Part shown: one piece after another, positions 21,509 through 21,657 of the stretch | Layout: each line of letters begins with the position of its first letter | How positions within the stretch are numbered: position 1 is the stretch's first letter | Program-made: the position numbers and the translations under genes | Assembly (NCBI RefSeq): GCF_018977255.1 | Contig: NW_024704742.1 | Location: 26,600,001-26,664,000 of the forward strand | Direction of reading: 5' to 3' | Length of the DNA: 64,000 nucleotides | DNA from: Callorhinchus milii | Lineage: Eukaryota | Notes under the pieces: generated by a model | Seen by the model: only the letters and a program-made list of their open reading frames with translations | Database searches by the model: none | What the model was told of the DNA's origin: nothing

Positions 21509-21578
21509 CTTCTGTCACATAGTTATGGTCTCGGAGAAAGCTGTTGTTGATTTTTCGTGTATCAATGTCCTCGCCCAT
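21509..21578 (-). CDS. PPP2R2B: First coding exon of PP2A regulatory subunit B55 (Bbeta1-type N-terminus); most likely PPP2R2B, PPP2R2C not excluded
   Basis: Translates [23 protein letters not shown] + G, then donor AAG/gtagcg (intron starts 21508). Matches the B55beta ([23 protein letters not shown]) and B55gamma (MGEDTDTRKINHSFLRDHSYVTE) N-termini. 23 codons + 1 nt gives the phase needed to continue into ADIISTVEFN. UTR context aaataaccctgctgtcaATG resembles human PPP2R2B as recalled. Confidence 0.9.
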
Positions 21579-21657
21579 TGACAGCAGGGTTATTTGGCAT
21601 GCCGATCCGCAGTGGACTAAAAGAAGCAGGAGAGGTCGTCACGACAGCAGCATCCAT
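21562..21657 (-). CDS. Upstream overlapping ORF (31 aa, [31 protein letters not shown])
   Basis: ATG at 21657 in strong Kozak context (agtATGG); out of frame with the main ORF; TGA at 21564-21562 lies inside the B55 CDS. Translation not demonstrated. Confidence 0.5.

Follow-up and report, generated by a model that had tools for sequence, protein, structure and literature searches.

An ATG in strong context that lies upstream of a coding sequence and out of its frame is normally selected against. On the minus strand of the 64,000-nucleotide stretch of DNA analysed here (the window), such an ATG opens a frame that runs over the start codon of a gene for a B55 subunit. Which PP2A holoenzymes are assembled depends on the supply of B subunits, two of which, B55beta and B55gamma, are enriched in brain. 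The locus raises two questions: to which B55 gene does this frame belong, and is it an accident of one leader or a conserved device acting on the amount of the protein?

Layout of the overlapping uORF and identity of the gene

The first upstream ATG (uATG1, 21657) has A at -3 and G at +4 and is the first of 31 codons that run up to a TGA at 21564-21562. The main ATG, 79 nt further 3' at 21578, has G at +4 and T at -3. The uORF is out of frame with the CDS and shares 17 nt with it, and so falls within the definition of an overlapping uORF (oORF or uoORF: an upstream ATG, out of frame, with its stop in the CDS). A second ATG in the uORF frame (uATG2, 21600) lies 57 nt 3' of uATG1. These features, including the weaker context of the main ATG, the second ATG and the MLLS uORF, are as the initial annotation had described them; its placing of the stop within the first five codons needs a small correction, the stop straddling codons 5 and 6. 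It did not list the 13-codon uORF at 21710-21669. Coordinates are collected in Table 1. The leader includes the sole N of the window, at 21737, within a run of A.

When the 130 nt upstream were resampled 5000 times under a Markov model, an overlapping ORF of some kind arose in 57% of cases, one with a strong Kozak context in 4.9%, and a strong one accompanied by a second ATG in 3.1%. Because of these rates, the arrangement is only mildly unusual in a single genome, and the case for it rests on conservation.

Table 1. Features at the start of the B55 gene, in window coordinates
Feature	Position	Strand	Evidence
Overlapping out-of-frame uORF, 31 codons	21562..21657	-	sequence; contigs of organisms D, E and F; mouse 224:341; P0143/P0144
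uATG2, G at -3, C at +4; 12 codons to the uORF stop	21562..21600	-	mouse ATG 281:341; Met in P0143 and P0144
13-codon uORF, CDS frame, A at -3	21669..21710	-	stop 11 nt 5' of uATG1
4-codon MLLS uORF, CDS frame, weak context	21639..21653	-	TGA (21641-21639) closes the CDS frame upstream; kept in D, E and F
Coding part of PPP2R2C exon 1, 23 codons plus 1 base; donor GT at 21508	21509..21578	-	protein identity; contig joins
Pyrimidine tract plus TAG within the uORF, possible alternative acceptor (weak hint)	21617..21636	-	rank; X20 contigs
5' leader upstream of uATG1, contig-covered	21658..21836	-	X5, X19, X20 (RNA status a guess)

Exon 1 is the sole B55 coding exon that we found in the 64-kb window, which yielded no alternative first exon either, and the link from the window to proteins rests on this exon and its leader. 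The exon-1 peptide is identical to the first 24 residues of protein P0149. The top protein match is a model from Chiloscyllium punctatum (P0002), in which the exon-1 peptide is unchanged and which also carries most of the 13 CDS-frame residues that precede it (82% over 39 residues in all). In a tree of 37 proteins chosen by name from the matches, with two lacking an anchor dropped and shark beta absent, P0002 lies outside the alpha, beta and delta clade (support 100/99), on the gamma side. It also has the traits of gamma, a gamma-type start (G2, V21) and a four-residue C-terminal extension. Cluster names among the members listed are gamma in 9 of 15, beta in 4 and both in 2; such source names are noisy, one 'beta' row being placed among the gammas in the tree. 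Organism F has a separate beta-like exon-1 contig beside its gamma-type exon. We infer that the gene is the shark/ray PPP2R2C (B55gamma) and not PPP2R2B; the identification as B55beta (Bbeta1) made initially is rejected on the tree, the gamma-type ends and the separate beta-like exon of F. The exon-1 peptide had no match in the PDB, and its pattern none in metagenome contigs.

Other B55gamma first exons were seen as well. Shark/ray proteins P0027, P0146, P0151 and P0153 keep an alpha/delta-like alternative first exon; a search of the 42 kb that precede exon 1 in the window gave no sign of it. The teleost gamma copies P0121, P0133, P0138 and P0142 have a diverged and shorter exon-1 peptide.

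The initial annotation presupposed that uATG1 and the main ATG share a transcript. We compared contigs of 4 of the 24 listed runs (X5, X18, X19 and X20), for all of which the RNA label is a guess; X5 carries the window's own species label, and the others come from organisms D, E and F. X19 contig 10 covers 21509-21736 in one unbroken piece spliced at 21509, and X18 contig 2 covers 21509-21660, so in other species both ATGs do lie in the same spliced exon. Exon 1 is joined at 21509 to exon 2 in X18 and X20; because of these joins an RNA origin of the contigs is favoured. The X5 contig covers 21612-21836, and its gap at 21509-21611 may stem from a filter. The leader reaches 21736 plus 33 letters in X19 and 21740 plus 150 letters in X20; it extends well above 21657 in three of the four runs, while X18 ends just above that position. 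Altogether, the uORF lies within the spliced exon in contigs of all three other organisms.

Several further splicing patterns and leader features were noted. In X19 contig 10 the FEEPEDPSN region, which belongs to a much later exon, follows exon 1 directly and in frame; this is a single contig with 1113 letters after the join, too few for a full CDS, and possibly represents a multi-exon skipping isoform or an assembly artefact. In X18 record 1 (organism D; window 21508-21538) exon 1 joins a different downstream sequence, and shark records P0149 and P0151 have an 8-residue insert after exon 1; both would fit cassette exons in intron 1. A second acceptor-like site with a long pyrimidine tract lies in the leader at 21920 (minus strand). 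Further upstream, 22156-22055 (minus strand) holds a 33-codon ORF in which a short GCA/CAG stretch encodes an Ala run; the X5 contig at 21954-22208 covers it. The part at 22156-22058 weakly matches the P0002 N-terminus (65%, E 0.79), and conservation of the leader may thus extend to this ORF and bring in additional ATGs. Broken reverse-transcriptase-like ORFs at about 10600-12700, 33500-34600 and 39600-40550 are, we presume from family likeness, LINE fragments.

Conservation in gamma and a counterpart in beta

The contigs of organisms D, E and F have no indel within the uORF (3 of 3), and F has deletions of 3, 2 and 4 nt within the 13 nt just upstream of it, with a purine remaining at -3. Beyond these organisms, a phmmer search with the uORF peptide gave three matches. 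Two of them, P0143 and P0144, align without gaps at 23/31 and 22/31 identities, keep both Met residues and have five extra C-terminal residues; over the 26 residues encoded by the UTR only, identity is 65-69% (17-18/26). The third, P0145 (1281 aa, 50% over 23 residues), was rejected as a chance match. A word-index search with the uORF frame gave no candidate.

In mammals, the CDS-frame reading of a raccoon dog gamma model is compatible with the P0143 and P0144 peptides at 13-15 of 20 positions, against a mean of about 6 and a maximum of 12-13 in shuffled controls. This record implied two ATGs 57 nt apart, a spacing read from it ahead of the mouse table. Among the supplement rows of PMC13396407, mouse Ppp2r2c has ATG-initiated overlap ORFs at 224:341 and 281:341 with the CDS at 309, which puts the ATGs at -85 and -28, again 57 nt apart and in the same frame as in the window. 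The sole length change relative to the window is +6 nt before the main ATG. The mouse ORF has 38 codons and overlaps the CDS by 32 nt, compared with 17 nt in the window. These coordinates are firm for the sequence and weak for translation.

We did not count a 'same frame' read from CDS-frame protein records, which is true by construction; the evidence on frame is limited to the mouse coordinates, the human PPP2R2B entry described below, and P0143/P0144. As far as sequence can tell, then, the uORF is real and deeply conserved: the ATGs, their spacing, the frame and the overlap are kept, as had been proposed for uATG1 and its frame. The stop position is not. A stop shared with human had also been proposed; it is the same in human PPP2R2B, whereas in the orthologues (mouse, P0143 and P0144) it lies at CDS codons 10-11 instead of 5-6, and a conserved stop position is accordingly rejected. 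The proposal that the MLLS stop blocks any N-terminal extension holds in the window and in D, E and F, but not in mammals: in the raccoon dog record no stop interrupts the CDS frame, and extensions from CTG and GTG appear in the mouse table. In mammalian beta (most of P0032-P0069), N-terminally extended isoforms read the uORF region in the CDS frame, which makes it a dual-frame stretch.

The human PPP2R2B uORF named in the initial annotation does exist, but in a paralogue and not an orthologue. It is a uoORF of 22 residues, c5norep167, catalogued and classed as 'conserved' in the GENCODE Ribo-seq ORF set (Sandmann 2023, PMC10032668); the six files of that supplement that were searched hold no row for PPP2R2C. 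It resembles the window uORF in its Met-Asp start, its frame relative to the CDS, its near-identical last residues and its stop at codons 5-6, and differs in its gene, its length of 22 codons, its single ATG at -52 and its place in a catalogue. All 41 beta records with this leader in the CDS frame have, at codon -17, the Trp that carries the ATG, these being related mammals and not independent; teleost beta records would allow an ATG at -49. The beta-like contig of F (X20 contig 16, 21518-21597) is ungapped through the 19 nt before the main ATG, a stretch thus shared by the paralogues, and has a likely uATG at -50, in a different frame, its A not being seen; this position counts against strict frame conservation in beta. 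No Ppp2r2b row stands among the mouse overlap rows listed in PMC13396407. The two uORFs are alike in where they lie, in beginning with Met-Asp and in their last residues; this suggests a common origin, and the element probably predates the beta/gamma duplication.

Selection on start codons, peptide or nucleotides

What selection has kept can be asked of the changes themselves. Of the 8 changes that distinguish the window, D, E and F, 3 are synonymous, where 28% would be expected (p=0.40, a small test). When the window is set against raccoon dog, 18 positions of each kind can be compared, and 4-10 second positions match as against 9 third positions (likewise a small test). These comparisons give no sign of selection on the uORF peptide. 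A role of the peptide itself, through nascent-peptide stalling or as a micropeptide, would nevertheless be in keeping with the P0143/P0144 identity over the UTR-only residues, since the 30 residues upstream in the same frame match at only 12/30 and 2/30, and with the last residues before the main ATG, shared with a human beta ORF that is itself classed as conserved. P0143 and P0144 are protein records, from which constraint on DNA and on peptide cannot be separated. Given the absence of a synonymous excess or a codon-position asymmetry in these small numbers, lengths that vary among 22, 31, 36 and 38 residues, and, for c5norep167, a mammalian PhyloCSF of -23.63 with no mass-spectrometry study in the PMC10032668 supplement, we consider such a role highly improbable, and the micropeptide reading put forward initially finds no support.

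Constraint could instead act at the nucleotide level for some other reason, such as a promoter-proximal function, protein binding or splicing, with the ATGs bystanders or mostly skipped. In favour of this, conservation is no stronger at second than at third positions, first exons of other types occur in relatives, and a strong acceptor-like site lies within the uORF. This site, at 21617, ranks by pyrimidine count in the top 0.7% of 1868 YAG sites, and X20 contigs 15 and 17 overlap by 30 nt exactly there; the overlap is the pattern expected of a splice branch, a weak hint given that the other arm is not seen and that X18 and X19 run through unbroken. If used, the acceptor would skip uATG1 and the MLLS stop. 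Against an explanation of this kind, both ATGs persist in mouse, although a mammal has changed at roughly every second position of the interval between them, and indels lie outside the ORF or are multiples of 3. The uORF region also has no Rfam family match and a fold that is not unusual (z 0.51), and repeats there were uninformative. We regard this explanation as quite improbable.

The reading that we favour, with modest confidence, is that the uORF is a conserved cis-acting translational brake, independent of its peptide, that acts where PPP2R2C uses its MGED-type first exon. Ribosomes scanning the leader would be captured at uATG1, by its strong context, or at uATG2, and would end inside the CDS without restarting at the main ATG. 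B55gamma would then come from ribosomes that leak past both ATGs or rescan after the short upstream uORF, as well as from transcripts with other first exons, and selection would act on the ATGs, the frame and the overlap rather than on the peptide. The two mouse ATGs at -85 and -28 with the spacing of the window, a +6 nt change as the sole difference in length, a uORF free of indels in all three organisms next to three deletions just upstream in F, and the lack of a peptide signal all argue for it. Weighing against it are the guessed RNA label of all four runs, the likely beta uATG of F in a different frame, and a peptide identity to P0143/P0144 that is high for a passive by-product.

Translation, known systems and possible consequences for B55gamma

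Translation is suggested by a lenient mouse gamma call and by the human beta catalogue entry. The mouse overlap.uORF5 and overlap.uORF9 are RibORF calls from hippocampus (lenient cutoff of 0.3, 11 reads; PMC13396407), and 4 of the 9 Ppp2r2c overlap rows among those listed are in the other frame, which together count against a brake. The rows are automatic, and the parts of the main text covered do not name Ppp2r2c. In the proteomics of the same study (mouse slices) B55gamma is well detected, with 21 sequences; this also speaks against a brake, and because of it any repression would be far from total. In reporters, oORFs with stronger Kozak contexts repress more (PMC10123092). The literature searched yielded no measurement for this gene by reporter, of translation efficiency or under the integrated stress response.

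The arrangement also invites comparison with a reinitiation switch. In the ATF4 leader the gap to the first oORF ATG is about 90 nt, and a distance rule governs reinitiation. Under a switch of this type, ribosomes that have translated the short uORF would find uATG1 too close (11 nt); uATG2, 68 nt on, would catch them when ternary complex is plentiful, and phosphorylation of eIF2-alpha would let them reach the main ATG, 90 nt on. Stress or neuronal activity would then leave B55gamma sustained or increased. The gap of 11 nt from stop to uATG1 is the same in the window and in mouse, uATG2 is kept in mouse, P0143 and P0144, and the start and stop of the upstream uORF are unaffected by the differences listed for E and F and are possible in P0143. 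As in ATF4, a short upstream uORF is followed by an out-of-frame overlapping uORF (PMC10123092); here the gap is 11 nt and the oORF has two ATGs, and stress induction would be a prediction. The upstream ORF of mouse, on the other hand, begins with ACG and, at 53 codons, is long for reinitiation, a stop at that place is impossible in P0144, and the gap in F is 2 nt. In mouse, moreover, cLTP brings no increase of the main ORF (log2FC -0.51, padj 0.31; PMC13396407). A switch is thus possible but unlikely. A broader proposal, similarly doubtful, is that a translational control cassette has been part of the beta/gamma first exon since its origin in early vertebrates. The gamma version would be a reinitiation switch, with a short uORF, a shielded uATG1 and a sensor uATG2, through which eIF2-alpha phosphorylation governs the supply of PP2A-B55gamma in neurons; transcripts with alternative first exons, or spliced at the internal acceptor, would lack it.

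Overlapping uORFs are a known class, and the human beta and mouse gamma ORFs already exist as table rows. The orthologous element appears in the mouse rows overlap.uORF5 and overlap.uORF9 (PMC13396407), with two ATGs 57 nt apart, the same frame and, 11 nt 5' of the first ATG, the end of an upstream ORF; these rows differ in having 38 codons, a 32-nt overlap and 6 nt more before the main ATG. The conserved peptide uORFs of ESUCA (PMC7530721) are likewise deeply conserved short upstream frames; unlike them, the uORF described here shows no sign of peptide selection and overlaps the CDS. The parts of the ESUCA main text covered do not mention it, and the ESUCA lists may include it. In 9 of the 16 supplement files of Mackowiak 2015 there are at least five human rows and at least one mouse row for PPP2R2B, none of them a uORF, and none for PPP2R2C; 12 of the 19 files of a cortex microprotein atlas hold no matching row. 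By title and the start of the abstract, we found no paper on this element in CC-licensed PMC or bioRxiv, the one PPP2R2C match being unrelated.

To return to the favoured reading of a brake, a uATG that cartilaginous fish and mouse have both retained, and that the paralogue parallels, would mark a point of dosage control. Through it B55gamma or Bbeta1 might be raised, and 5' UTR variants could matter there, including any beside the SCA12 repeat of PPP2R2B. A frame with two start codons that overlaps the start of B55gamma from sharks to mice suggests an old brake on the amount of this protein.
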